Positions 8,410-61,802 of a stretch of DNA of 64,000 nt are shown here, in pieces (position 1 is the first letter of the stretch; each line of letters begins with the position of its first letter). The position numbers were made by a program, and so were the translations under genes. The notes under the pieces were generated by a model. It was given only the letters and a program-made list of their open reading frames with translations, had not been told where the DNA came from and searched no databases. This DNA comes from Candidatus Nomurabacteria bacterium GW2011_GWC2_42_20 (GTDB lineage Bacteria; Patescibacteriota; Minisyncoccia; Phycocordibacterales; UBA1550), in NCBI GenBank assembly GCA_000998425.1, contig LCDG01000003.1:1619-65618 (forward strand). Direction: 5' to 3'.

Positions 8410-9752
8410 GACTGTTTAATACACTCTCGCGCTCTATCGAGAAACTCGAGCCGATTAATGATAATGAGATTCGAATGTACCACTGTGGTCCTACAGTTTA
8501 CGACTACGCGCATGTTGGGAACCTACGTGCCTTTATTGTAAATGATACATTGAGACGAACACTTGAGTACCTAAATTACAACGTAAAACAGGTGATGAAC
8601 ATCACAGATGTTGACGACAAAATGATTGCTCGCGCAAGGCAAGAAGGGGTTACGATTCAAGCTCTTGCGCGAGAGTATACAAATTTCCTACTCGCTGATT
8701 TTAAAGCGTTAAATATCCTCACACCACACAAAATACCGCATGCTACCGAGCATATTGGTGGTATGGTCGTGATGATTGAAAAGCTGATTCGCGATGGATA
8801 TGCGTACACTACTTCAGACGGAATATATTTTGATGTTACTAAATCAAAAAATTATGGCTCTCTCGCGCAGCTTGATCTTGACGCAAGCACTGAGTCGCGA
8901 ATAGAGAGTACAGGAGAGAAGAGGTCACATCGAGACTTCGCTCTCTGGAAGTTTGAATCCAAGGACGACAACGGAGTAGCTTATGATGCATCTTTCGGGC
9001 GAGGAAGACCTGGTTGGCATATTGAATGTTCAGAAATGGCATGCGACTCACTTGGAGAAACAATAGATATTCATACAGGTGGTGTTGACCTTATTTTCCC
9101 ACACCACACGAACGAGATTGCACAATCAGAAGCAGTAAATAAGAAGCCTTTTGTGCGTACGTGGGTTCACACTGAATTTGTTATGATAGATGGCCAAAAA
9201 ATGTCTAAATCACTTGGCAATCACACAACACTAAAAACTGTCACAGAGCGTGGCTTCTCCCCCCTCTCCTTTAGATATTTCGTATTAGGCACTCACTATC
9301 GTTCAAAGCTCAATTTTACGTGGGATGCGCTTGATGGCGCTCAGAATGCATTAAAAAAATTAAATGAATCATTTCGCGAACTTCCAGATGGTGGGACCCC
9401 CGTACCGACTGAGCTCGCGAATTTTGAAAATGCTTTATGTAACGATATGCATATTACATGGGTACTTGCGCGCATATGGCAAATCCTAAAAGAGGAACCT
9501 AGTATCCCCCCTGCAGATAAAAAAGCGACAATTCTTGAATTCGACAAGGTGCTAGGTCTTGGACTCGTAAATGTAAAAAAAGAAACGATACCAAGCAATA
9601 TAGTAGCTTTGGCCAAAGCTCGTGAGGAAGCTCGCAAAAATAAGGATTGGATAAAATCGGATAAAATCCGTGAGGAAATCAATTCCCTTGGGTGGAGTGT
9701 TGAGGACACAGATAAGGGCCCAAAAATCATAAGATTAGACGTTCAGGAATAG
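8400..9752 (+). CDS. cysS: cysteine--tRNA ligase
   Basis: HIGH-type motif (CGPTVYDYAHVGNLRAF), zinc-binding Cys, and KMSKS motif (KMSKSLGN). Confidence 0.95.
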   Translation: MDVRLFNTLSRSIEKLEPINDNEIRMYHCGPTVYDYAHVGNLRAFIVNDTLRRTLEYLNYNVKQVMNITDVDDKMIARARQEGVTIQALAREYTNFLLADFKALNILTPHKIPHATEHIGGMVVMIEKLIRDGYAYTTSDGIYFDVTKSKNYGSLAQLDLDASTESRIESTGEKRSHRDFALWKFESKDDNGVAYDASFGRGRPGWHIECSEMACDSLGETIDIHTGGVDLIFPHHTNEIAQSEAVNKKPFVRTWVHTEFVMIDGQKMSKSLGNHTTLKTVTERGFSPLSFRYFVLGTHYRSKLNFTWDALDGAQNALKKLNESFRELPDGGTPVPTELANFENALCNDMHITWVLARIWQILKEEPSIPPADKKATILEFDKVLGLGLVNVKKETIPSNIVALAKAREEARKNKDWIKSDKIREEINSLGWSVEDTDKGPKIIRLDVQE

Positions 9753-9836
9753 TTTTTGTGGCATAATTTTGTATCCACCGCTTATCCCCTATTTTTTCCA
9801 CGATTTTGTTTTTGTGAGAATTGAAGCTGTGCTAGA

Positions 9837-11249
9837 ATGGCCGATATGGCAGATACAAAAAACCGACAATTCAAATCAAGAGAGCTCCGCATTCCTCCTC
9901 AAAACATTGATACAGAAAAAGCGCTTCTTGGATCCCTAATGCTTCGCCCAGAGGGTATGTATGATGTTGGGGATGTTGTCACAAGAGAATCATTTTATGT
10001 AGACAAGCACCGCATGCTTTTCGATGCAATGCTTGAACTCCATACTCGACATGAGCCAATAGACCTGCTTTCAGTGTCTACTCGACTAAAGGAACGTGGT
10101 AAATTTGACAATATTGGTGGCGGAAGTTATTTGGCCGAGCTTGTAGATACCGTCCCCTCCTCTACAAACGCAAAACATTATGCTGAGATTGTTCAAAGAA
10201 AATACATTTTAAGACTACTTATTGAGGCGGCGGAACACATCTCTGAGTTAGGATACAATGAGGCTGAAGCAATAGAAAATGTGCTTGATGAAGCAGAAAA
10301 GAAAATATATGCGATCACAAATTCAAGTGTCACGAAAAAATTTATCGGCCTGAAAGACACTCTTGAAGAAGCGTGGGAGCGCCTTGATAAAATGCACAAA
10401 TCTGGTAGCGAGCTACGTGGAGTGCCTTCTGGTTTCCCTGCACTCGATACACTGCTTTCAGGCTTTCAAAAATCCGATCTCATCATCCTCGCTGCTCGCC
10501 CTTCGATGGGTAAGACAACCCTCGCGCTTGATATTGCCCGCCAAGCAGCGATTCATCACAATGTTCCTGTTGGAATCTTTTCACTTGAAATGAATACACA
10601 GCAACTCGTCGACCGCCTGCTATCGGCAGAGGCGCGCGTAAATGCATGGAAGCTTCGTACGGGGAAGCTTTCACTTGATGAGGATTTTGAAAAATTACGT
10701 GGCTCACTCGACAGACTTTCTAAAGCACCGATTTTTATCGATGATCAATCTGGAAATACGATTATGAAAATGCGTTCTGCAGCTAGAAAACTCAAGAGCG
10801 AGCATGGGCTTGGGCTCATCATTGTCGACTATCTCCAGCTTATGAATACATCAAAAAATCATGATTCTATGGTCAACCAAGTGACAGAGATATCTCACTC
10901 TCTCAAGGCGCTAGCAAAGGACCTCGATGTGCCAGTGATTGCGCTTTCTCAGCTTTCTCGCGCAGTGGAGGCTCGTGGTGGCAAACCTCGCCTATCTGAT
11001 CTTCGTGACTCAGGTTCTATTGAGCAGGATGCCGATGTTGTTATGTTTATTCACCGCGAGGACAAGCAAGACAAGAATGCCGAGAAGACCAACATTGCGG
11101 AGATTCTTGTAGAAAAGCATCGCAATGGCCCTGTCGGCGCCATTCAGCTCTACTTCGATGAGGAAAAATCAACGTTTATGTCTGTTGATAAGCAACATGA
11201 GTATGCAGGTGCCACACGCAGTTCTGGTGGGAATTTTGATGATTTTTAA
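9837..11249 (+). CDS. dnaB: replicative DNA helicase
   Basis: DnaB N-domain, Walker A (ARPSMGKTT), SQLSR helicase motif, IDYLQL motif; 470 aa. Confidence 0.95.
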   Translation: MADMADTKNRQFKSRELRIPPQNIDTEKALLGSLMLRPEGMYDVGDVVTRESFYVDKHRMLFDAMLELHTRHEPIDLLSVSTRLKERGKFDNIGGGSYLAELVDTVPSSTNAKHYAEIVQRKYILRLLIEAAEHISELGYNEAEAIENVLDEAEKKIYAITNSSVTKKFIGLKDTLEEAWERLDKMHKSGSELRGVPSGFPALDTLLSGFQKSDLIILAARPSMGKTTLALDIARQAAIHHNVPVGIFSLEMNTQQLVDRLLSAEARVNAWKLRTGKLSLDEDFEKLRGSLDRLSKAPIFIDDQSGNTIMKMRSAARKLKSEHGLGLIIVDYLQLMNTSKNHDSMVNQVTEISHSLKALAKDLDVPVIALSQLSRAVEARGGKPRLSDLRDSGSIEQDADVVMFIHREDKQDKNAEKTNIAEILVEKHRNGPVGAIQLYFDEEKSTFMSVDKQHEYAGATRSSGGNFDDF

Positions 11250-44476: not shown

Positions 44477-44534
44477 AGGTTAAGTGTACCAAATTTATAG
44501 CAAACAGAATCATCGCATTGCCTGTTTTTGTTCA

Positions 44535-44544
44535 AAGCTGGGAG
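44535..44544. repeat. degenerate direct repeat of tRNA-Gln 3' end (candidate distal att site)
   Basis: aagctgggag is identical to 50686..50695 at the tRNA-Gln 3' end. The flanking ttgggacgaa resembles the T-arm ttggaatcgaa. Confidence 0.35.
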
Positions 44545-44601
44545 TTTGGGACGAAGTGGGAACTTTATTACTGATAAAAAACTTTCATATTGTTAATGCC
44601 A

Positions 44602-45705
44602 CTAGCTCTGATCCGGCCAGAATTCGATAATAAAATCATGTTTACTATACGGATATCCATCATATTCTTTTACAAAACCATTATTTTTTACACTTATTTT
44701 TGCCTTCATCAAACTTAACGCCTTTTTTACAATAAAAAGACCTATACCTGTTCCATCTTGAGCTATTCCTGACTTATCTTCTTTTGGCTTTTTAACATTT
44801 CTCCCTTGTCTATTTTCTAGAAATATTGTTTCTTTCTCGTCGTCCTCTATAGATACGCTAGTCATCGATAAAATTAATTTTTTAGATCTTGAAGATAGGT
44901 CAGCTGTAATTTCGATGTCAGTGTCGTGTAAAGCATACTTGCTGATATTGTCAAAAATTTGCCATATGACAGCGTTAAATAAACTGTGAACCACATTTAT
45001 TTTATTTAGTGAGGCTAAATCAGTATTTATATTAATATTTATTTCTATATTTTTTTTCCTCAGTTCATCAACAAAAGGATTAGTTAACCGATACATCGCC
45101 TTTTGAATATTTACAGGAAGAAATGAACCTGTACTATCAGCATACCCACCTATGATTCGAAGAGTTTCTATTTGTGCGTCTAAATCTATTGCCCTGTGAG
45201 ACATCTGACATACATCATTAGCAGCTATGTCTGTGTTTTCCTCAATTCTTCTTTTGACCTCATCCTTAAATTCTATATATGGACGTCCCCTGGCTTTGTC
45301 TGAGATGAGCCTATCAAAATTATCTTTAAATCTTCTTTGAAATTTAATTAGGTTGTGAGAAAATCTTCTTGTAACTGCGTCAAATGATTGCCTTTGACTT
45401 GTTGCAATTTGATTAAATTTAGGAATAAAACCTAAATAAATATTACATGATCTTTGAATCGACCTATTCCCTTGAAATAATTCGTGATCAGCTTTAACGA
45501 TTAAACGCACAGATCCGAGACTATTACTTCTGTATATATTTCGGTATCCTTTTTCAGTAAAATTATCATTTTGTGAAATACTAAACTTTTCTGGAAGTGT
45601 ATGGAGTTGCCCGTATCGTGCTACAACACTACCTTTTTCGTTTTGTAGTTCAAAAAATATTATTCCGTCATTATTATCGAGACTCATGAATTTTCTTTGC
45701 GGCAA
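44602..45705 (-). CDS. cytoplasmic histidine-kinase-like protein (GHKL ATPase)
   Basis: No TM helix. Candidate H-box FSHNLIKFQ, N-box-like WQIFDNISKYA, and G2 box GTGIGLFIVKKAL. Overlaps the receiver gene by 32 nt. Confidence 0.65.
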   Translation of the reverse strand: MPQRKFMSLDNNDGIIFFELQNEKGSVVARYGQLHTLPEKFSISQNDNFTEKGYRNIYRSNSLGSVRLIVKADHELFQGNRSIQRSCNIYLGFIPKFNQIATSQRQSFDAVTRRFSHNLIKFQRRFKDNFDRLISDKARGRPYIEFKDEVKRRIEENTDIAANDVCQMSHRAIDLDAQIETLRIIGGYADSTGSFLPVNIQKAMYRLTNPFVDELRKKNIEINININTDLASLNKINVVHSLFNAVIWQIFDNISKYALHDTDIEITADLSSRSKKLILSMTSVSIEDDEKETIFLENRQGRNVKKPKEDKSGIAQDGTGIGLFIVKKALSLMKAKISVKNNGFVKEYDGYPYSKHDFIIEFWPDQS

Positions 45706-46180
45706 CTTCTATCTGATCAACAAAAACAAAGGCGTCAGCGTGTTTATCAATCCAGGCATCAGCAATAGAATGAACCTCGCTTCCTGGGATATGCCCTGCG
45801 TATCCTGAACAAAAAATTATAAACTTCTCAGGGTATCTTTTTTTGATACTTTTAAGTAAGCCTATCCCACTCTCTTTTGGAGTTAAGACATTTCCAACTC
45901 CAACATAATCCATAAAGATAATGTCAGCACTTTTTATATCTTCAGCGTCAAAATTTATAACATCATTAATTTGATTAACATTCCAGCCAGCATTTCTAAT
46001 TGTCGACAGAGTAACACCAAAGTCTTCATCGTCTATAAATAAAATTTTGGTTATTTTTTTTATCTCTTCTATCGACAGTACTTTTTTACCTGAATATTTT
46101 GCTTTTATCCACTTTTCAGCCTTATCCATGCCAACAGTTGCCAATATTGTGCAAACTTTAGTTGCTATTGTTTCTATCAT
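45674..46180 (-). CDS. stand-alone receiver (REC) domain protein with 40-aa N-extension
   Basis: CheY-like strand pattern ILFIDDE (acidic pocket), IIFMDY (phospho-Asp), and IIFCSGY. No output domain. Confidence 0.6.
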   Translation of the reverse strand: MIETIATKVCTILATVGMDKAEKWIKAKYSGKKVLSIEEIKKITKILFIDDEDFGVTLSTIRNAGWNVNQINDVINFDAEDIKSADIIFMDYVGVGNVLTPKESGIGLLKSIKKRYPEKFIIFCSGYAGHIPGSEVHSIADAWIDKHADAFVFVDQIEVAAKKIHESR

Positions 46181-46293
46181 ATATTTATTCTTTAGTTTTT
46201 TTGTGGCTTCACTTTTTGAGAAAGTTCTTTCTTGTTGAATTTCCCATATTTGTTAATGATAGTCTACCACAATGTGGGAGGATACGCATTGTT

Positions 46294-46788
46294 TTAAGGA
46301 GTAATTTTAGAATCGATCTGTGTTTTTAAATCCATTTCTTTTGGAATAGAGGTAATATGCAGAATAGGAATACCGCACTGGTTTAGTACTCTATCCACAA
46401 AGCCGTCACGAACCTGCCTCTCTGGTCTTTGGTGTGTGTAATCATCGAGTTCAATGACAAGAACAGGCGAAATATTTTGTTTATCGAAAAGCACAAAGTC
46501 TACTGATTTTTGGTCTATTTTATTTCTGTATCCACCCCTAAGAGAGCCTTTACCTTCAAGCATTACGATTTTATCAAGAGCAAGTTGTGGAAAAATGTAA
46601 TATTTACCATCAACAGCTCGTTCAAGAACACTCAAAAATTCTCGCTCTGCACGAGTAAGTAACCATGTCTTTTTTGAATACGGAAGCCATTCATCTTTTT
46701 CGTTTACCCTCCCACCTTTTCTCGTTAATTCGCCCACAACAAATCCAACAACCGCAACGATGACAGCAAATATAACAAGATTATTCAT
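46294..46788 (-). CDS. membrane-anchored DUF2726/NERD-like nuclease-fold protein
   Basis: N-terminal TM, then FLSVLERAV...FPQLALDKIV...KSVDFVLFDK...PVLVIELDDYTHQRPERQVRDGFVDRVLNQCGIPILH, the DUF2726 pattern. Confidence 0.55.
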   Translation of the reverse strand: MNNLVIFAVIVAVVGFVVGELTRKGGRVNEKDEWLPYSKKTWLLTRAEREFLSVLERAVDGKYYIFPQLALDKIVMLEGKGSLRGGYRNKIDQKSVDFVLFDKQNISPVLVIELDDYTHQRPERQVRDGFVDRVLNQCGIPILHITSIPKEMDLKTQIDSKITP

Positions 46789-47341
46789 GGTTAATATTAT
46801 CTAGAATTATTTTTGCTTCCGCAAGCAAATTTTTAGTTACGCTTAGGTTCCATGCTCGCATCGTGCTATGCCATTTCCGGTATTTAAGAAATTGCTCCCA
46901 TGTTAATTCGATTATTCTTTTAGGTTTATAATTCTTAAATATTTGCACAATAATTACATATTCAAATTTCTTTTCTAGCTGATTAATGTCATTATTATCT
47001 CCGCACCCATAAAATACACCAGTGGTAGTTCCTGGCTCCGAAACTGTTTTAATACTATACCTTTCTCCTTTGCGGCTTAACGCATCAACATTTTGAGTAC
47101 CTTCTGGTGCAGCTTGTAATTTTGACAAGCCAGCTATGAAATTATAAGTTTCTACCGCCAAAAATTCCCCTCTCTCGCCAACCATATTGTTTGTTCTTGC
47201 TAGGTTACGTCTCCTCAACTCTTGTTGGGTTTCACCGTAGTTTAGCCACAACTCCTCATTGTCTAATTGACCTAGATTTATTTTGTTCAAATCTTTATCA
47301 TGAGTAGAATTCTTCTCCTTTTTATTAGTTTCTATTCCCAT
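46781..47341 (-). CDS. hypothetical protein (possible PD-(D/E)xK-like fold)
   Basis: 186 aa; GERGEFLAVETYNF and VDALSRKGERYSIKT are faintly restriction-endonuclease-like. 8-nt overlap with the downstream DUF2726 gene indicates an operon. Confidence 0.4.
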   Translation of the reverse strand: MGIETNKKEKNSTHDKDLNKINLGQLDNEELWLNYGETQQELRRRNLARTNNMVGERGEFLAVETYNFIAGLSKLQAAPEGTQNVDALSRKGERYSIKTVSEPGTTTGVFYGCGDNNDINQLEKKFEYVIIVQIFKNYKPKRIIELTWEQFLKYRKWHSTMRAWNLSVTKNLLAEAKIILDNINHE

Positions 47342-47755
47342 AGCATTACTCTTACATATCCCATTTACTTAGTCCAGCAGAAAAGTGCCATCCTCAATAT
47401 CTTCTTGCTTGCAGAAACCGTATGATACATAATTTAACTATGCCTGCGGGCGAGAGTTTTTTCGACTGTCGATTACCTAAATTGAAGGCAGGCATAACAA
47501 AATAGCTCTCATAACTGAGGGCTTTTTTGCTGTCTAAAAACCGCAAAAATTCCTATATATCTAATGGATTTACATAGCGACCGCTTGCTATCATTAGCAA
47601 GTTAGTGTATTATCAAATTGTAGCTTGACGTCAGAAAATTTCTATCGGCTTGCTGCGGGCATCAATAAAACGATGTACCTATGAGCGAAATGACACATTG
47701 TGTCTGCCGTCGCTCCGAGCTACAAATATAAGCGTCACCTCAACGGGTGGCGCTT

Positions 47756-48208
47756 TTATTTTTTCTTCTTATTTTTCTTAAAATGAACTGAAATTATCTC
47801 AAGCTTCTCGTCTTGTAGTTCAAGGAGAACACGCAGTGACGGTTTCCCGACATGAGAGTAATCTTTTATATAGAAATGTTTTATGGGTGGCTCATATTCG
47901 TAAAAATCAAAATGAGTGATGGTTTCCTGCAGGTTATCTATAGCAAAAAATACAGCCGTCAAAGTCTGCTCTGCTGTGTGATTCTTGCTGAATTCTTTTT
48001 TGCGACTTTCAACAAAATGCTTCAAGGACTTGCGCGAAATATAAACTCTTATATTTTTATGAGGGTGACCTTTATGTTTAGACCCTCGAACGTCAAAGGC
48101 TCGTATTAGCTCAGTATGTTTTTCTATGAAGGATCCATGATCGAGATCGTAATACTCCCTCATTAGCTTTTTTATTTTATTTAATCTTCTTGGAATACTC
48201 GCTATCAT
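47756..48208 (-). CDS. hypothetical protein (lysine-rich C-terminus)
   Basis: 150-aa ORF in the island; no recognisable domain. Confidence 0.4.
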   Translation of the reverse strand: MIASIPRRLNKIKKLMREYYDLDHGSFIEKHTELIRAFDVRGSKHKGHPHKNIRVYISRKSLKHFVESRKKEFSKNHTAEQTLTAVFFAIDNLQETITHFDFYEYEPPIKHFYIKDYSHVGKPSLRVLLELQDEKLEIISVHFKKNKKKK

Positions 48209-48644
48209 AATTGCTCATATTACCATTTTTGACGCCTTGCAGGAATTTTCACGGTTTTGCGTCCATAACAGTGAAAAAGTACTCGAAAATACAACTTTTC
48301 ACGGTTATTACATTGAAGAAAAATTTTTGTTTACCATAATTTCAAAATATGATATATTAGAAGAGCTTGAAGCGTATCGAGTGTAGGCATGTGACGGCAT
48401 CACATGCGAAAAAATTCACTGCATTCTCTACCCCTTACTTCAAGGGGTGTTTCGAGTTTCAAATTCTCACAGGAACTCATCGAGGAAACAATTCAGTGCT
48501 TTAGAGAGGAGAATACTGAAGATATCTCTCCCGAAACCGCAAACGAGTATCTCAACTCGCTTTCGGGTTTTTTCCTTGCGCTTGCTGACAATCCATCCCC
48601 TCATCCAAAAGATGAGAACGGGGATGTTTGATGTACCTATATAA

Positions 48645-48692
48645 ATGCACGCTACTTTCTCGATCCTTAAGGGACGAGAAAGTAGCGTGCAT
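48645..48692. repeat. 48-bp near-perfect palindrome
   Basis: atgcacgctactttctcg (18) + atCCTTAAGGga + cgagaaagtagcgtgcat (18). Arms are perfect and the centre contains the ccttaagg palindrome. Confidence 0.7.
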
Positions 48693-48701
48693 AAGTCAAT
48701 T

Positions 48702-49178
48702 ATGAAAAAGAAGCAACCAAGTTATATAAAACTCTACCGTGCCGACCTTAGTGCCCCGCACATCAAGAACCTCTCTGATCGCGAGTTTAGGCTTTGGGTT
48801 GTCTTAAAAGTTCTTGCTGGTTGGGATCCACGACACGAGGAACACTTCATGGTCGTAAAAAGTTCAATCAGAGACTTGCAAGCGAGCCACCTTCCTACAT
48901 GGAAAAGTTCAGGAAAGTTTAGCTTAACGATTAACCAACTGATTGAGAAAGATATGATTAAGCGCATAGGTGTAGGGAAAATGAAACTTTTGAATCCTGC
49001 TCTACGAGAAGAACAAGATTTTCTTCTCAAGGAACAAAGTGTTCTTCTGGAAGAAAATCTTGTTTCGCAGAAAGAACGGGAACGGGTCAACGAAAAGCTT
49101 CAGGACATCAAAAACCTGCTTGCAAATAACGGTATTTTGAGAAAGCGCGAAAATAATATTCCGCCTAAAGAAATATAA
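48702..49178 (+). CDS. hypothetical DNA-binding (winged-helix-like) protein
   Basis: Start trimmed to the ATG at 48702, downstream of the palindrome. Basic, coiled-coil C-terminus. Sits immediately upstream of the recombinase. Confidence 0.35.
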   Translation: MKKKQPSYIKLYRADLSAPHIKNLSDREFRLWVVLKVLAGWDPRHEEHFMVVKSSIRDLQASHLPTWKSSGKFSLTINQLIEKDMIKRIGVGKMKLLNPALREEQDFLLKEQSVLLEENLVSQKERERVNEKLQDIKNLLANNGILRKRENNIPPKEI

Positions 49179-49239
49179 AGAAAAAAATGAAACTTAAACA
49201 AATATTGCTTCATTTAACCAAGGGGGCTATAGTAATTCC

Positions 49240-50718
49240 ATGAAATACATTATCTACTGTCGAAAATCCACGGAAAGCGAAGACAGACAACTTCTGTCAC
49301 TGGATGCCCAAGAACGGGAGCTTTTGGATATTGCTAATAAGCACAGCCTAGAAATTACAAAAGTTTTTCGCGAGAGCATGTCTGCCAAAGCACCTGGTCG
49401 CCCTATCTTTGACGAGATGATGAAAATCATTGAAAAAGGAAGAGCAGATGCTATCCTCTGTTGGAAAATTGATCGTCTCACGCGTAATCCTGTTGATGGC
49501 GGAAAAATTCAGTGGCTCCTGCAAACGAACAAGATAAAGTGCATTCAGACTTTCGAGAAAAGCTACTTCCCTAATGACAATGTTCTGCTCATGAGTATCG
49601 AGCAAGCAATGGCGAATCAATACATTCGAGACTTGAGCGTGAATGTAAAGCGTGGGCTACGAGAAAAATTGCTTCGTGGAGAATGGCCAAACAAGGCACC
49701 TTTTGGATATACAAACGACAAGGGGTCTAAGTTTGTCATTCCTGATCCTGTTCGTTCAAAATATGTTTCTCGTGCTTTTGAAATCTACCTCACGGGCTCA
49801 CATGGCACAAAAGATATTTCAGAAATTCTTTACAAGGAGGGTTTACGCACGGCTACAGGAAAGAAAATTTTGAAGGGGCGCATTCATAGCATTCTTTCCT
49901 CAATTTTCTACACGGGCATCATGGAAAAAGAAGGAAAATATTATGAAGGCAAACATAAGCCACTCATCTCAAAAGAAACTTTTGAGAAAGCTCAAGATCT
50001 TATGCACGGCCGTTCACGACCCCGCCCACAACGATTATTCTTCCCTCTTCGTGGCTTTCTCAAGTGTGAAAATTGCGGATGCGCCCTCACTGCATCTCTC
50101 AAAAAAGGTCATCACTATTACTACTGCACGGGAAACAGAGACTTTTGCAATGAACACAAAAGCTACATGCGAGAGGTGTACCTATATGAGAAAGTTTCTG
50201 CTGTCCTCGAATCAATTCATTTTTCAGAACGCAAGATCGAGATTATGTATCAGGCGGCCAAGGAGAGACTCGAGTTTGATAATGGGTACAACAACCAGAC
50301 TATATCCACCCTCCAAAACCATTTAAAATCGCTTGAGACGAAAGAATCCCTTTTGCTCGACACTTTCCTCGCTGAACAGATTACAAAGGATTTATACGAC
50401 GCTAAAATCCTCGCTTTGCGTAATGAGCGAGTTCAAGTTACCAAGCAACTCAAAGAAGCCGAATCACGACAACCTGTCGCGCTGTTGGAACCTACCAAAA
50501 ATGCTTTTTTAACCGCTAGTAGAGCCTCAAAAGAGTTTTTAGAAGGCGACGATTTGAAGAAAAGAAATATCCTAGAAAGTCTCTGTTGGAACCTTTCGCT
50601 CAAAGAGAAAAATATCCATACAGTGTCGCTCAAAAGTCCTTTCGACATCATGTCAAAAGCATCGAAAAATGACGGTTTGTGCACTAAGCTGGGAGGCTTG
50701 GAATCGAACCAAGATTGA
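49240..50718 (+). CDS. large serine recombinase
   Basis: Resolvase catalytic domain with Ser in YCRKSTESEDRQ, DRLTRN motif, recombinase domain, and zinc ribbon (CENCGC...YYYCTG). The C-terminus overlaps the tRNA-Gln 3' end. Confidence 0.9.
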   Translation: MKYIIYCRKSTESEDRQLLSLDAQERELLDIANKHSLEITKVFRESMSAKAPGRPIFDEMMKIIEKGRADAILCWKIDRLTRNPVDGGKIQWLLQTNKIKCIQTFEKSYFPNDNVLLMSIEQAMANQYIRDLSVNVKRGLREKLLRGEWPNKAPFGYTNDKGSKFVIPDPVRSKYVSRAFEIYLTGSHGTKDISEILYKEGLRTATGKKILKGRIHSILSSIFYTGIMEKEGKYYEGKHKPLISKETFEKAQDLMHGRSRPRPQRLFFPLRGFLKCENCGCALTASLKKGHHYYYCTGNRDFCNEHKSYMREVYLYEKVSAVLESIHFSERKIEIMYQAAKERLEFDNGYNNQTISTLQNHLKSLETKESLLLDTFLAEQITKDLYDAKILALRNERVQVTKQLKEAESRQPVALLEPTKNAFLTASRASKEFLEGDDLKKRNILESLCWNLSLKEKNIHTVSLKSPFDIMSKASKNDGLCTKLGGLESNQD

Positions 50719-50759
50719 CGGCTTCAAAGGCCGCTGTCCTACCATTAGACGATCTCCCA
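50689..50759 (-). tRNA. tRNA-Gln (UUG)
   Basis: Hand-folded cloverleaf: U1-A72 first pair as in bacterial tRNA-Gln, D-arm GUCU/AAUGGUA/GGAC, anticodon stem GCGGC/GCCGU with loop CUUUGAA, T-arm CUUGG UUCGAUU CCAAG, discriminator G; CCA not encoded. Confidence 0.85.
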
Positions 50760-50800
50760 AAGTTGCATTGTCTTACACAATACATTACCCATGCAACTGT

Positions 50801-57316: not shown

Positions 57317-59524
57317 ATGGCAACCAAACAATACAAACTCCTCATCGTAGAATCGCCGTCAAAGGCGAAGACTATTGGGAAATATCTTGGGGACGAATAT
57401 GTTGTAAAGGCGAGCGTTGGGCATATTCGCGACCTTCCAAAATCAAACAAGCAAGCTATCGATATCCCCGGGGGCTTTATTCCTTTTTACGAAATCTCAA
57501 AAGGTAAATCCGATGTGGTGCATGAGATTGACTCACTTGCAAAGAAAGCGAGCGAGGTGCTTCTTGCAACCGACCCTGACCGTGAAGGTGAGGCTATCGC
57601 ATGGCACATTGCAGAAGCATGCGGTCTAAAAAAACCAAAGCGTGTCACCTATCACGAGATCACCAAGAGTGCCATAGAGGAAGCCATCGCGCATCCACGC
57701 GAGATTGATGCCAACCTTGTGAAAGCGCAGGAGGCGCGACGCGTTCTAGACAGACTCGTGGGATACGACCTCTCGGGTCTCATTTGGAAAAAAGTTCGCT
57801 ACGGTCTCTCGGCAGGGCGCGTGCAATCCCCCGCTCTCCGCATTATCATGGAGCGCGAGCGTGAAATCCGTGCCTTTATTCCAGAGGCGTATTGGACCCT
57901 CACAGCAAAAGTAAAAACAATGAAAGGCGCCGAGCTTGAGCTTTCATGCACAGAGGAACCCAGTGATGAATCAATCGTAAAAAATATCCTAAAAATAGGT
58001 CGCGCAAATCAGTGGGTTGTGCGTGAGGTAAAAGAAAGCGAGGTGGGCCGTTCACCAAAGGCACCATTCATTACTTCTACACTTCAGCAGGCTGGTTCTT
58101 CACGCTTTGGATTTGCACCGTCACGCACTATGGGTATCGCGCAAAAGCTTTACGAAAAAGGTTTCATTACCTACATGCGTACCGACAGCACAACTCTCTC
58201 TAAAGACGCAACCACCGCGATACTTGCAGAAATTACGAAACGCTATGGCGCACAGTCAGCTGAGGCACGCGTGTATAAAACCAAGAGCAAAAATGCCCAA
58301 GAAGCGCACGAGGCTATACGCCCTACCGACGTGAGTAAGGACAACCTCGGCATCAATCCCGAAGAACAAAAGCTTTACCGTCTCATTTGGGCGCGAACCA
58401 TTGCATCACAAATGGTGGACGCGAAGCTTGCAAGAACAACAATACTCGCTAATGTGCGAGATTTCAGCGTGCCAAACTTTTCTGTCACTGGTTCGCGTGT
58501 CATCACACAAGGATGGCTTGCCGCAGATCCTGACTCTCGTAGTGAGGATGTCGAACTTCCAAAAGTTGCTGAAGGTGAGTCGCTCATTCTACTTTCTCTC
58601 GATGATGAGGCAAAATTTACCGAGCCACCAGGACGCTACTCTGAAGCAGGTCTCGTGAAGGAGCTTGAAAAGCGCGACATCGGTCGTCCTTCTACGTATG
58701 CGTCTATTATTAAAACGATTCAGGATCGTGGCTATGTCATTAAAGATGGTAAAGCACTCAAGCCGACAGACACGGGGGACGTCGTGAGCTCATTCCTCGA
58801 GGAACATTTTGCAAACTATATTTCAGACACCTTCACATCAGAGATGGAGAACAAGCTCGACGATATAGCAAACGGCGAGCGCGAGTATGTAAAAACACTC
58901 AAGGATTTTTATGGTCCATTTTCCAAAGACCTCAAGGCAAAAGACAAGTTAGATAAACAGACGACTCTCGGCGACGCAGACCCACAACACAAATGTCCAA
59001 AATGCAACAGCCCGATGATAATCAAGCTCGCGCGTACGGGGAAGTTTCTCTCGTGTAAAAAATATCCTGACTGCGACGGCGCGCGCATGATAGACGGCAC
59101 CGAGCTTGCCGGCCCGCGCGATACTGGAGAGCTTTGTCCAAAATGTGGAAAATCAAACCTATTTGAACGTGATGGGCGATTTGGAAGATTCATTGCCTGC
59201 GGCAATTATCCAAAATGTAAACATATTAAAAAAGACGAGACTGCCGCGCTCCTCAACCACACGGGTGTCCCCTGCCCAATGTGTAAAAAGGGTTTTATGA
59301 CAGAGCGCAAGGGTCGCTTTGGAATTTTTTATAGTTGTACTGGCTACCCAGACTGCAAAAATGCAATCAAAGCAAGGCCGACAGGCAGAATTTGTGAGTA
59401 TCCAAAAATTGACGGCACCCCTTGCGACTCACTCATGATGGAAGGCACGAAGACAATTCCAGAACGCTGTTCAAATAAATTGTGCCCAAACCATAATCCA
59501 CATAAACTAGAGAAGGTGAGCTAG
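57317..59524 (+). CDS. topA: DNA topoisomerase I
   Basis: Toprim (ESPSKAKTI), catalytic Tyr region, and three C-terminal C4 zinc ribbons. Confidence 0.95.
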   Translation: MATKQYKLLIVESPSKAKTIGKYLGDEYVVKASVGHIRDLPKSNKQAIDIPGGFIPFYEISKGKSDVVHEIDSLAKKASEVLLATDPDREGEAIAWHIAEACGLKKPKRVTYHEITKSAIEEAIAHPREIDANLVKAQEARRVLDRLVGYDLSGLIWKKVRYGLSAGRVQSPALRIIMEREREIRAFIPEAYWTLTAKVKTMKGAELELSCTEEPSDESIVKNILKIGRANQWVVREVKESEVGRSPKAPFITSTLQQAGSSRFGFAPSRTMGIAQKLYEKGFITYMRTDSTTLSKDATTAILAEITKRYGAQSAEARVYKTKSKNAQEAHEAIRPTDVSKDNLGINPEEQKLYRLIWARTIASQMVDAKLARTTILANVRDFSVPNFSVTGSRVITQGWLAADPDSRSEDVELPKVAEGESLILLSLDDEAKFTEPPGRYSEAGLVKELEKRDIGRPSTYASIIKTIQDRGYVIKDGKALKPTDTGDVVSSFLEEHFANYISDTFTSEMENKLDDIANGEREYVKTLKDFYGPFSKDLKAKDKLDKQTTLGDADPQHKCPKCNSPMIIKLARTGKFLSCKKYPDCDGARMIDGTELAGPRDTGELCPKCGKSNLFERDGRFGRFIACGNYPKCKHIKKDETAALLNHTGVPCPMCKKGFMTERKGRFGIFYSCTGYPDCKNAIKARPTGRICEYPKIDGTPCDSLMMEGTKTIPERCSNKLCPNHNPHKLEKVS

Positions 59525-59661
59525 GAAGCATGCTTTGCGTGCGCAAATCGTCTTCGTGGGGCGGAGCTATATCGAGTGAAGCGAGATAATGAGCCGGGGT
59601 CGAGAGTACTTAGTCCGCGCAGTGTGTACACACACGAGCAGACTTAGTAACTCGTAACCAG

Positions 59662-59734
59662 GACAATACCCGAACGTTGCTCAAATAAACTTTGTCCCAA
59701 CCATAACCCGCACAAACTAGAGAAAATTAAGTAG
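59662..59734 (+). repeat. second copy of topA 3' coding end (synonymously diverged)
   Basis: Encodes TIPERCSNKLCPNHNPHKLEKIK*, against topA ...TIPERCSNKLCPNHNPHKLEKVS*. 11 of 11 nucleotide differences in the first 21 codons are synonymous; a stop lies 4 codons upstream in that frame. Confidence 0.7.
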
Positions 59735-59797
59735 ATTGACACATAAATAGAGAAAAGGTAGTCTTCAAAGAGACACATTCACATAGAGGAGATTGTA

Positions 59798-60094
59798 ATG
59801 ATTGAAACACTAGGAGTAATTATTCTGTTTGTATTTATTTACTACATTCTTCCCACTATAATTATATGTGGAGGATATTTGTTGTATAAAATCTGGTCAG
59901 CAAATCCGTATGAAGTCGAGAAGGTTCAGCAAATGAAACACACAGTAAAGCTTGCAAATGCAGGTAATCAAAATGCCATTCTTGCATGCGAAGAAGACTA
60001 TCAAATTAGAAAAAGCATACGCTATGTTGACGGGCAGATCATTGCTCACTACTCAGTCCCATCTTGGATGACTTTGCGTGCCTTCGGTTTCTAA
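59798..60094 (+). CDS. small N-terminally anchored membrane protein (paralog 1)
   Basis: MIE start, one TM helix, motif KLANAGNQNAILAC. Preceded by TTGACAC-N17-TAGTCTT and an AGGAG ribosome-binding site. Confidence 0.45.
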   Translation: MIETLGVIILFVFIYYILPTIIICGGYLLYKIWSANPYEVEKVQQMKHTVKLANAGNQNAILACEEDYQIRKSIRYVDGQIIAHYSVPSWMTLRAFGF

Positions 60095-60105
60095 GCGACA
60101 CCTTC

Positions 60106-60140
60106 GTCCCCATTTGCTCAAGCGCAGATGGGGACATTTT
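60106..60140 (+). terminator. hairpin terminator after small ORF 1
   Basis: gtccccat ttgctcaagcgcag atggggac followed by atttt. Confidence 0.4.
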
Positions 60141-60185
60141 AAATTATAAAAACAAAAGGGATGGCTTCATCATTGCGTATGCGCA

Positions 60186-60263
60186 AAAAAAACAATCCAC
60201 GAGAGGTGTAGTAATAAACTTTGCCCAAACCATAATCCACATAAACTCAATAAACCTGAATAA
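60186..60263 (+). repeat. third copy of topA 3' coding end (heavily synonymously recoded)
   Basis: Encodes KKTIHERCSNKLCPNHNPHKLNKPE*. Differences include CGC->AGG (Arg) and TCA->AGT (Ser) codon-family switches. No ATG precedes it in frame. Confidence 0.7.
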
Positions 60264-60319
60264 TTGACACTTATGGGCGATAAGTATAGTCTTTGATCTA
60301 GACACTATTTAAGGAGGTT

Positions 60320-60586
60320 GTGATGATTGAAAAAATAAGTTTTTCACTGATTGGGCTCTTTGTTCTTCTGATGATTTGGCCGTGGCTCATGGAGCTGATT
60401 TTGTATGACAAGACGACACGTCAAACGCGTCAACGTCTACAACTTCTCATAAAACGAGCAAACAACGGCAATGACGCAGCTCGAAGGGCGTGCGACAGAA
60501 ATGGTCTCATCAACAAAGGAATGGTTCTTTGCGAGGATGGGATAAACGTGAAGAGTGTCTATTCCCTTCCGCATAGATGGCAATGA
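60320..60586 (+). CDS. small N-terminally anchored membrane protein (paralog 2)
   Basis: MMIE start, one TM helix, motif KRANNGNDAARRAC; the promoter and ribosome-binding module is homologous to paralog 1's. Confidence 0.45.
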   Translation: MMIEKISFSLIGLFVLLMIWPWLMELILYDKTTRQTRQRLQLLIKRANNGNDAARRACDRNGLINKGMVLCEDGINVKSVYSLPHRWQ

Positions 60587-60634
60587 CTCCATCGCTACTT
60601 CAAAACTGCATGACCATTTCAGGTCGTGCAGTTT

Positions 60635-61802
60635 TCATTTGTATTTCTCCATCATATCCCATATCGCACCAGCGACGTTACGTGGCTTGCCTTCAAATGG
60701 CAGATGGTGGTTATCGAAAAACGGCATGCTGTTGCACTCGATAATTCCACATCGCTTCTCCTTTCTCCACGAGTGGCTGATATCATTGATTATAAAATCA
60801 ATACCGACGATAGGCGCCTTCAAAACATCGGCAACTTGCTCAAAAAGCTCGACATTGTCAGGGTGCACCAAATCAGAGACATCGGCAGTCGTGCCACCCA
60901 CACTCCAATTCACTTTTTGATGAAATGTCACGCGCTTCCTCATTTATAGCACTATCATCAATTTTTATTTTTGAAAAATATGGGCCAGTGCGTGCTGGGT
61001 GTTTGTTGGCCTCATCCACAAGCTCTTGAATGGTACTCACCCCATCTCCTATCACATATGGCTGGTTCCGACGAAGCGTTGCTACAAGTTTTCCATCGAC
61101 CACAGTGGCTCGATATACTGCGCCAACAAGTTCCTCTTCTACAATTACCGATGGCGATATTTTTGTCGCTATAAAAAATGCGCGCACGAGCTCATTTTCA
61201 TCAGTAATATGAAGAGTCGTATGCCTAGAACCAGACCCATGGCGGGGCTTCACAATAACTGGCGTTTCAAGATTCTTAAAAACCTGCATCGCTCCTCTTT
61301 TTGTAATCACAGAGGATCCTTTTGCGACAGGAAATCCATATTTAATAAAATGTTTTTTGAGAGCATCTTTATCATCAATCCATTTCACCTGATGCTTTAT
61401 CTTCTGAGGTAGTGGTATCCCTTCATAAGTTATACGTTTACCATTTGGGAACTCCGCGATATAAATGTTTCTTGGTAGCCCAAAAAGTCTAAACTCCCAA
61501 ACATTTAAACCCCTCTTGTTGGCCTCCTTCCAAAGCATTCCTGCAAGTATTGAAACATCGCTATCTACTTCAATTTGTTTTTTTGCTAGGCCGGTTTGCA
61601 AGCACGCTCGAATGAAATGTGGAGTAACTAGATGCTCATATGAATGAATCTGAAAAAATAACCAATTCATTAAACTCCAGCGAGTGAAAAGTAGGTTAAA
61701 AACAGAGCTGATGATAATATCAGCATACACAATCCGGTGAAAGATTGCGTTGTTGCTCCCGCACTCCCTGCATTCCATTGGTTTTGGTAATTTAAATACC
61801 AT
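60635..61802 (-). pseudogene. cyanophycin-synthetase-like ATP-grasp ligase, frameshifted (no Mur-ligase domain)
   Basis: Two overlapping minus-strand ORFs (60873..61802 and 60635..60943). Together they match the CphA ATP-grasp half (VIVKPRHGSGSRHTTL; ATVVDGKLVATLRRNQPYVIGDGVSTIQELVDEANKHP; VGGTTADVSDLVHPDNVEL; EGKPRNVAGAIWDMM). The frame switches near 60945-60965. Confidence 0.5.

Follow-up and report, generated by a model that had tools for sequence, protein, structure and literature searches.

In mobile group I and group II introns, an internal guide sequence or an exon-binding sequence (EBS) pairs with the exon, and homing is accompanied by co-conversion of the flanking exon. Guides are also used by IS200/IS605 elements and their PATE miniatures, in which sub-terminal hairpins provide a DNA guide, and by IS110/IS1111 elements, which employ a bridge or seek RNA. 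Genomic islands and prophages integrate in the 3′ part of tRNA, tmRNA or protein genes and carry a replacement end in attP, examples being the T-loop and 3′-end 'sublocations' of tRNA-integrating integrases and the SCC elements at rlmH. Tycheposon-like elements belong to this group as well (tycheposons: bioRxiv 10.1101/2020.12.28.424599). Here we describe a locus of Candidatus Nomurabacteria bacterium GW2011_GWC2_42_20 (assembly GCA_000998425.1, contig LCDG01000003.1, positions 1,619 to 65,618; this whole stretch of 64,000 nucleotides is called the window), in which the 3′ end of topA, the gene of DNA topoisomerase I, is present three times in tandem (copies A, B and C), with a structured RNA-like module, element Y, lying between A and B. 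We consider it probable (about 0.7) that these ends are the footprints of two successive site-specific insertions with replacement gene ends, of which A plus Y belongs to a Y family. The features concerned are as follows.

57317..59524, + strand: topA, DNA topoisomerase I, 735 aa, the target gene (open reading frame (ORF); Pfam Toprim, Topoisom_bac and Zn_ribbon_Top1)
59447..59524, + strand: copy A (T1), the current genic end, 25 codons plus TAG, peptide TKTIPERCSNKLCPNHNPHKLEKVS and stop
59525..59659, + strand: element Y, a structured RNA-like module of 135 nt (covariance model, covariation)
59657..59734, + strand: copy B (T2), a displaced end, peptide TRTIPERCSNKLCPNHNPHKLEKIK and stop (TRTIPERC..KLEKIK)
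60186..60263, + strand: copy C, a displaced end with one P-to-H change, peptide KKTIHERCSNKLCPNHNPHKLNKPE and stop (KKTIHERC..KLNKPE)

The locus resembles the gene-end integrative elements in that its inserts are flanked by direct repeats of the target 3′ end (A and B flank Y; B and C flank a unit encoding a 98-aa protein), the incoming foreign end is joined to the gene and the resident end is distal, and reuse of the site gives tandem displaced ends; junctions in the T-loop or at the tRNA 3′ end and integrase-less passengers are shared as well. It differs from them in that the Y insert may be only ~130-210 bp and gene-less, has a conserved, covarying, strand-specific fold, carries a target-complementary stretch that changes with the target, and has no associated integrase. 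With group I and II introns Y has in common its sense-strand, structured RNA-like character, a guide complementary to the junction sequence, the repeated occupation of one conserved site across lineages, and flanking gene sequence that travels with it. Unlike them, it lacks both a match to the Rfam intron models and an intron-encoded protein, is smaller (~130 nt) than known self-splicing introns, and duplicates the downstream 'exon', the gene being intact without splicing. The short internal guide pairing, apparently for target choice, and the non-coding structured ends recall IS200/IS605-PATE and IS110/IS1111, and, as with guide-dependent transposons, miniature non-autonomous copies outnumber autonomous ones; in contrast to those transposons, no transposase accompanied any Y copy (~200 loci, larger copies included), Y has a single guide of 5-18 nt, and its insertion brings a copy of the target 3′ part, which theirs does not.

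Results

Three topA ends in one codon register

Reading and translation of positions 59300-60700 placed A, B and C on one strand and in one codon register, with a stop codon position common to all, which agrees with the initial annotation of three topA 3′ ends in the same orientation. A core of 21 codons contains 11 that differ between A and B (12 nt), synonymously throughout, as had been noticed at the outset. Comparison of A with C recovered the codon-family switches reported there (Arg CGC to AGG, Ser TCA to AGT, Leu TTG to CTT) and the P-to-H change, and added an E-to-N replacement; synonymous sites are essentially saturated. Neither B nor C is translatable in situ, again as annotated: an in-frame TAG TAA lies 4-5 codons upstream of B, and C has no start codon and an in-frame stop 15 codons upstream. 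When 12 random substitutions were introduced, the peptide was preserved in 0 of 200,000 randomisations, which bears out the earlier judgement that the pattern is unlike neutral decay.

The repeat spans ~78 nt, from GGCAC/GAAGAC (the slash marks the junction) to the stop plus 4 nt. At the nucleotide level it begins at ~59449 in A, where the junction 59448/59449 reads GGCAC/GAAGAC, and at ~59660 in B; the apparent 'ACC' codon (59657-59659) belongs to the spacer element, of which it is the 3′ end, and not to the repeat proper. The copies form direct repeats of 63-78 nt with a mutual identity of 68-77%, and ARAGORN detected no tRNA or tmRNA in the region. The identical locus occurs in ENA ERZ909595 and ERZ5996431, JGI 3300025308, GCA_000996455.1, GCA_004299265.1 and Logan SRR1658462; since contigs of several independent assemblies and samples contain it, it is no assembly artefact. 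All 20-23 contigs with the exact proteins (TopA or the 98-aa protein) showed a single arrangement, and these exact-protein look-ups returned the full arrangement only, with no intermediate state of the window locus. Read-through from A into B was considered and rejected: only the window has an A-to-B spacing that preserves the frame (210 nt), the spacing elsewhere being 199-214 nt, and stops intervene.

The resident end is the most distal copy

The window was compared with 80 topA loci obtained from a scan of species-representative genomes. Its source is a groundwater bacterium of the Patescibacteria (Paceibacterota/Yonathbacteria-like). The closest relative, locus L001 (97% TopA protein identity, 89% nt identity overall), has a single topA end, KLNKPE and stop, followed by a TTGACA promoter region that matches the one after copy C of the window. 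Window and L001 are 88% identical (nt) over the 300 nt before the junction and 94% identical over the 67 nt after C, and identity to the L001 end is 65% for A, 68% for B and 86% for C. As the L001 tail, the identity of C and the downstream DNA agree, C is the resident, ancestral end, and the topA body up to ~59446 belongs to the L001-like resident lineage. The initial annotation had named the presence or absence of a block downstream of topA in related genomes as informative; relative to L001, which lacks it, 739 bp (59447-60185) are inserted in the window, and the left edge of this block coincides with the start of the repeat.

Copy A is 86% identical to the topA end of L007 and 83% to that of L003. 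The spacer between A and B is 82% identical to the L007 spacer, compared with only ~79-80% for the topA body. By these comparisons, A plus Y is of foreign origin, A having been imported together with the spacer element. Two deep versions of the gene end (CGC TGT TCA AAT AAA TTG... and AGR TGT AGY AAY AAA CTN...) fill the A or the B position across genomes, as expected if the end travels with the insert; synonymous sites in the clade are saturated already at ~80% nt identity. The earlier proposal that each copy had been a working end elsewhere and had arrived by successive insertion is supported by L001, which shares C and the DNA downstream, and by the likeness of A and its spacer to L007.

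Element Y has a conserved, covarying fold

Four parts of element Y are referred to below.

about 59528-59544, + strand: hairpin 1
59550..59555, + strand: guide GTCTTC, complement of the repeat start
59560-59566 to 59591-59604, + strand: arm with a conserved GGA/GA internal loop, from GGCGGAG (59560-59566) to GAGCCGGGGTCGAG (59591-59604)
59653-59659, + strand: 3′ end of the long arm, ...CGTAACC

Analysis by cmsearch revealed exactly one Y in the window (59512-59669 by model, 59525-59659 without flanks), with 78.8 bits and E 1e-16 for covariance model R1 and 53.1 bits and E 1.5e-11 for model R2. The fold is ~130 nt long, has three arms and is conserved across the family. RNAalifold on the aligned topA spacers gave 32 of 46 pairs as compensatory, and in 79 distinct sequences 94.8% of cells were paired and 42 of 46 pairs were compensatory, pair counts that are somewhat inflated because the alignments were fitted to the model; in slid controls, with partners shifted by 1-3 columns, pairing dropped to 34-44%. 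G.U pairs (173, one of them nearly invariant) are far more numerous than A.C pairs (26), which indicates that the fold belongs to the sense strand and is RNA-like. Conserved unpaired bases include ..G.CGGAG.., ..CGAG.C..GGGGUC.GCG.. and the 3′-terminal ..GUGACC. Hairpins lie near both ends of Y, terminal inverted repeats are absent, and units consisting of Y only are non-coding.

Y had no match in Rfam 15. A scan of the window at gathering thresholds gave only tRNA, plus one fluoride riboswitch elsewhere, and at E≤10 in the window region and E≤1 in 16 other Y loci only tRNAs, one fluoride riboswitch and noise were obtained. No description of Y was found in the full-text literature searched.

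A guide within Y matches the target

The guide lies inside Y, just after hairpin 1, and in every context its sequence complements the initial 5-18 nt of the repeated segment. In the window it is the perfect complement of GAAGAC, which starts copy A (59449-59454), and against copy B, which begins AGGAC (59660-59664), it forms 5/6 pairs, with one G.U and one mismatch. The guide changes with the target, being GUUUUU or GUCUUC for topA and GAGGAAUCG-like for tRNAs. In the helix between guide and target (helix 2), 91% of cells are paired and compensatory changes occur in each of the 6 pairs. A role as a primer-binding site, with the guide pairing to the tRNA 3′ terminus as in a retroelement, was rejected: the helices begin at the T-loop junction, comprise 5-18 bp and are not anchored at the 3′ end or CCA. 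The topA site GGCAC/GAAGAC loosely resembles the T-loop GGTTC/GAATCC (pattern GG..C/GAA..C), a likeness that may explain topA as a recurrent non-tRNA target.

Y recurs at the topA site

A second topA end was found 199-214 nt after the first in L004, L005, L007, L008, L012, L016, L022 (several copies) and L044, and likewise in two metagenome contigs, L179 and L248; module Y occupies the same topA site in at least 10 lineages besides the window, and does so twice in L022. Two scaffold subtypes of Y occur at topA, and L004 has both in tandem. The displaced copy B is identical to A over 74 nt in L016, is a mosaic with A in L007, L008 and L012, has diverged fully at synonymous sites in the window and L004, has decayed in L044 (a frameshift, with one Cys and the stop lost), and is interrupted by a 95-nt insert in L005. 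This range from identical to decayed or interrupted copies fits recent recurrent insertion followed by neutral decay.

Several further observations concern the same site. In L004 (8417-8900) the second topA end is followed by the 5′ third of another Y, of the subtype seen in the window and L007, which breaks into unrelated sequence, and a small GIY-YIG nuclease ORF lies beyond the break; the partial copy implies that two Y subtypes were stacked at one site and that one was disrupted. The ~95-nt insert splitting the displaced end of L005 (3218-3312) has a perfect palindrome, ATACCTTTTGTTTGCTGACAAACAAAAGGTAT, at its start and may thus represent a further small insertion element. L064 (1492-1700) has a displaced topA end without Y, its second copy following a 25-nt hairpin and including two extra upstream codons, and in L022 (8666-8722) a heavily decayed fourth topA end, also without Y, follows the third at a distance of 10 nt. 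The topA end is an insertion hot spot beyond the Y family.

Y lies mostly behind tRNA genes

Model R1 first located Y behind tRNA genes in topA-bearing loci, and a metagenome pattern scan followed (at least 120 loci; copies scored at E<0.01). Among the metagenome matches listed, 122 Y copies (E<0.01) were present in 100 loci, and for 53 of the 60 assessable strong copies a tRNA gene lay no more than 450 nt upstream on the same strand; these tRNAs include nearly all isoacceptors. The usual layout is tRNA, Y and a second copy of the tRNA 3′ part that begins exactly past the T-loop GGTTC and ends at the tRNA end plus a few bases, so that the junctions read ggttc/GAATCC... in the tRNA and gtgacc/GAATCC... 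after Y. In a second group, Y starts at the tRNA 3′ end and the repeat is only 4-6 nt. The earlier notion of successive insertions gains from this recurrence: members of the spacer family occupy the topA site as well as tRNA T-loops, and in each case the 3′ part of the target is duplicated after them. Y is abundant in Patescibacteria, with several copies per 100 kb in the sequences examined; it is mostly located behind tRNA genes, and topA is a recurrent non-tRNA target. In viral contigs, all 70 pattern matches were due to chance and none scored with the covariance model.

Tandem Y arrays occur at tRNAs in L202, L026 and L173. In L202 (minus strand, 9564-9975) three near-identical Y units stand head to tail with a 134-nt period behind tRNA-Arg, a multimer that could stem from repeated insertion or from rolling-circle-like copying. 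Other members carry cargo between the first repeat and Y, namely L205 (T1, a 271-aa ORF, Y, T2) and L187 (a 183-aa ORF). Scaffold subtypes recur at different targets, which implies retargeting; one instance is a long third arm, GAGUACUUAG...CUUAGUAACUCGUGACC, shared by the window, L007, L013 (tRNA-Glu) and L238 (tRNA-Tyr). A conserved promoter-like block, AAATAGGTGCGAG(C/T)TTGGTACAATAGAGAC, lies just upstream of some Y copies without an upstream tRNA (L193, L176, L238). A second type of partial tRNA duplicate was seen after tRNAs in L257, L218 (around 4519), L252, L238 (around 2750), L176 and L159; it is preceded not by Y but by ...ACATGTAATGTT/C..., a T-arm-like mimic, and may represent another insertion-element family at the same T-loop site.

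The unit between B and C and the downstream genes

The DNA on either side of copy C comprises the following.

59736..60145, + strand: cargo with copy B, namely a -35 TTGACA (59736-59741), a gene for a 98-aa small membrane protein (59798-60094) and an intrinsic terminator (60106-60135) plus T tract
60146..60185, + strand: junction DNA before copy C, with no detectable Y-like element
60264..60635, + strand: resident downstream unit, namely a -35 TTGACA (60264-60269), an 87/88-aa gene (60320/60323-60586) and a terminator (60602-60635)

The 87/88-aa small membrane protein is a weak paralogue of the 98-aa protein (34% over 47 aa, E 1e-5), and small genes of this sort are the usual topA neighbours in the clade. 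The 98-aa protein had no Pfam match; the only homologue found (63%) is encoded in L280, after a topA end and a degenerate Y, without B. No ORF with a recombinase domain lies between 59525 and 60185. By eye, a Y remnant had been suspected before C (GGATGGCTTCATCATTGCGTATGCGC) but was dropped, as unfiltered cmsearch with R1 and R2 and nhmmer detected neither Y nor a remnant at the B-to-C junction. By analogy, the unit of B and its gene resembles the cargo-carrying Y members L205 and L187.

Further downstream, on the minus strand (60635-61802), two overlapping ORFs (60873-61802 and 60635-60943) make up an ATP-grasp-like gene that other assemblies of this locus show as a single one of 403 aa; the strain has a frameshift or pseudogene here, or else the sequence contains an error.

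A serine recombinase island in the window

The initial annotation had remarked that no recombinase gene is adjacent to the topA ends, which is correct; the one recombinase gene of the window, for a large serine recombinase, is 9 kb upstream (49240-50718; domains Resolvase, Recombinase and Zn_ribbon_recom). It is part of a low-GC island (0.33-0.39; window 44500-50760) beside tRNA-Gln (50689-50759, minus strand), which also carries DUF2726, a histidine-kinase-like ATPase and unknown ORFs. The last ~30 nt of the recombinase gene overlap the tRNA-Gln 3′ end in antisense, at the island edge; the window contains no second copy of the tRNA-Gln end, and its island contains no Y. Homologues of the recombinase (55-93% identity) are located at tRNA-Gln in many Patescibacteria, always adjoining a rolling-circle Rep gene. 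Y was present in 0 of 6 loci with islands of the window-type recombinase (5 distinct islands, L282-L287), all with tRNA-Gln and Rep. L238 is the sole locus combining a recombinase homologue with Y, the homologue lying between tRNA-Tyr and Y plus the duplicated tRNA end; a degenerate third tRNA-end remnant just before Y suggests a nested insertion.

Discussion

We propose that both insertions would have taken place at GGCAC/GAAGAC, 25 codons before the topA stop. Each incoming DNA would have brought the last ~25 codons plus the stop and would have joined the gene body, keeping topA intact and pushing the old end downstream. Starting from an ancestor with the order topA-C-gene2, like L001, a 529-bp piece (B, promoter, 98-aa gene and terminator) would have entered and displaced C, and a 210-bp piece (A and the 135-nt Y) would subsequently have displaced B. 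Guide pairing, to judge from the complementarity, would set the position of insertion, and the chemistry would be performed by a trans-acting enzyme or by the RNA itself. Before its transfer, each copy would have evolved in a related lineage of its own as a functional topA end, which would account for differences that are almost only synonymous, and the displaced copies would not have decayed because they are too young.

Several points weigh against this proposal. No enzyme was found with Y, and Y-only units encode nothing. Mobility is read from presence or absence and phylogenetic discordance; no empty and filled pair within one population and no circular junction was found, the contigs showing the filled state only. 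The pair counts supporting the fold are, as said, somewhat inflated, and the intact copy B in several genomes could indicate that B remains in use, for instance by way of splicing. Since no Y is detectable next to C, the route of the B-to-C insertion is only inferred; analogy and the shared insertion point suggest that it was the same one, in which case its Y would have been lost later. It is possible, though we would not rate it as likely, that Y is the active part of a new class of guide-programmed mobile element, namely a ~130-nt RNA which is transcribed with the host gene and picks its site by base pairing, the unit including the replacement target 3′ end being inserted by its own ribozyme activity or by a host or trans-acting enzyme.

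Splicing would offer another account, in which A and Y together form an optional intron, so that the spliced mRNA ends in B and the unspliced one in A; removal would occur by self-splicing or host processing with the guide as internal guide sequence, and both copies would be under selection at the protein level. The sense-strand, RNA-like fold, the pairing of the guide with the first bases past both putative splice sites, and a copy B that is intact with synonymous differences only in the window, L004, L012 and L022 are in its favour, and introns are plentiful in Patescibacteria (PMC13011429). Nevertheless, we consider it improbable: the group I and II models gave no match (at E≤10 in the window region and E≤1 in 16 other Y loci), the last base of the element is C instead of the G typical of group I, B is frameshifted without one Cys and the stop in L044 and split by the 95-nt insert in L005, the first copy already completes the tRNA at tRNA genes, versions with cargo exist, and splicing leaves the foreign origin of A unexplained. 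Distinctly improbable, too, is the action in trans of the window serine recombinase or a relative on small att-bearing circles, with Y as part of attP. The gene is bona fide and its 3′ end overlaps tRNA-Gln, L238 has a homologue between tRNA-Tyr and Y plus the duplicated tRNA end, and GGCAC/GAAGAC is loosely like GGTTC/GAATCC; yet the idea of a distant recombinase acting in trans, raised in the initial annotation, fared poorly when checked, as none of the 6 loci (5 distinct islands) with this recombinase contained Y, the window island has neither Y nor a second tRNA end, L238 is probably nested to judge from its degenerate tRNA-end remnant, and serine recombinases need neither a guide nor long identity.

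If the topA end, alone or together with the small gene, had been duplicated locally in tandem, gene conversion or selection for nucleotide divergence would be required to keep the peptide. Blocks of perfect identity in the A/B mosaics of L007, L008, L012 and L022 do resemble conversion tracts, and the two small genes are weakly paralogous; however, a duplicate should match the resident lineage, and identity to L001 is 65% for A, 68% for B and 86% for C. Moreover, about three quarters of the changes in untranslated B and C should alter the peptide (0 of 12 do so between A and B), and the same spacer family stands at unrelated tRNA sites. Local duplication with conversion is excluded by the breakpoint data, and we give this explanation very little credence. 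Scarcely credible is a programmed switch, also put forward initially, in which recombination among A, B and C deletes or restores modules and changes expression downstream of topA: direct repeats of 63-78 nt could support deletions and a TTGACA promoter and small gene directly follow both B and C, but the 20-23 contigs with exact TopA or 98-aa protein show one arrangement, 68-77% identity makes a poor substrate for homologous recombination, and a deletion would be irreversible. Diversity-generating retroelements (DGRs) are common in bacteria of the candidate phyla radiation (CPR), and near copies of a gene 3′ end in the same orientation downstream would suit one, with the downstream copy as template repeat and the genic end as variable repeat. 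This explanation is rejected on the mismatch spectrum, since adenine is present at 4 of 18 A/B mismatches in A and at 4 of 18 in B; synonymous changes diversify nothing, and no reverse transcriptase was found among the called genes within ~6 kb, the range to which that search was limited, so its likelihood is negligible.

It is known in principle that elements insert at gene 3′ ends and bring a replacement end. What is unusual is an ultra-small, gene-less vehicle with a conserved covarying fold and a target-matching guide, abundant in Patescibacteria and without a match in Rfam or in the literature searched. Successive insertion with replacement ends explains the paradox of untranslatable copies that differ only synonymously, and it implies that insertions can concentrate at the 3′ end even of an essential gene, provided that they supply the gene end. 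If Y is guide-programmed as outlined, insertion in essential genes such as tRNAs and topA would be harmless, with occasional carriage of cargo; if the guide directs insertion, bacteria whose genomes are very small would possess, in Y, a minimal programmable insertion system and a route for small cargo genes between related species. Even as the passenger of a recombinase, Y yields false partial tRNAs and gene-end fragments in annotation, and it bears on the interpretation of variable regions in metagenome-assembled genomes.

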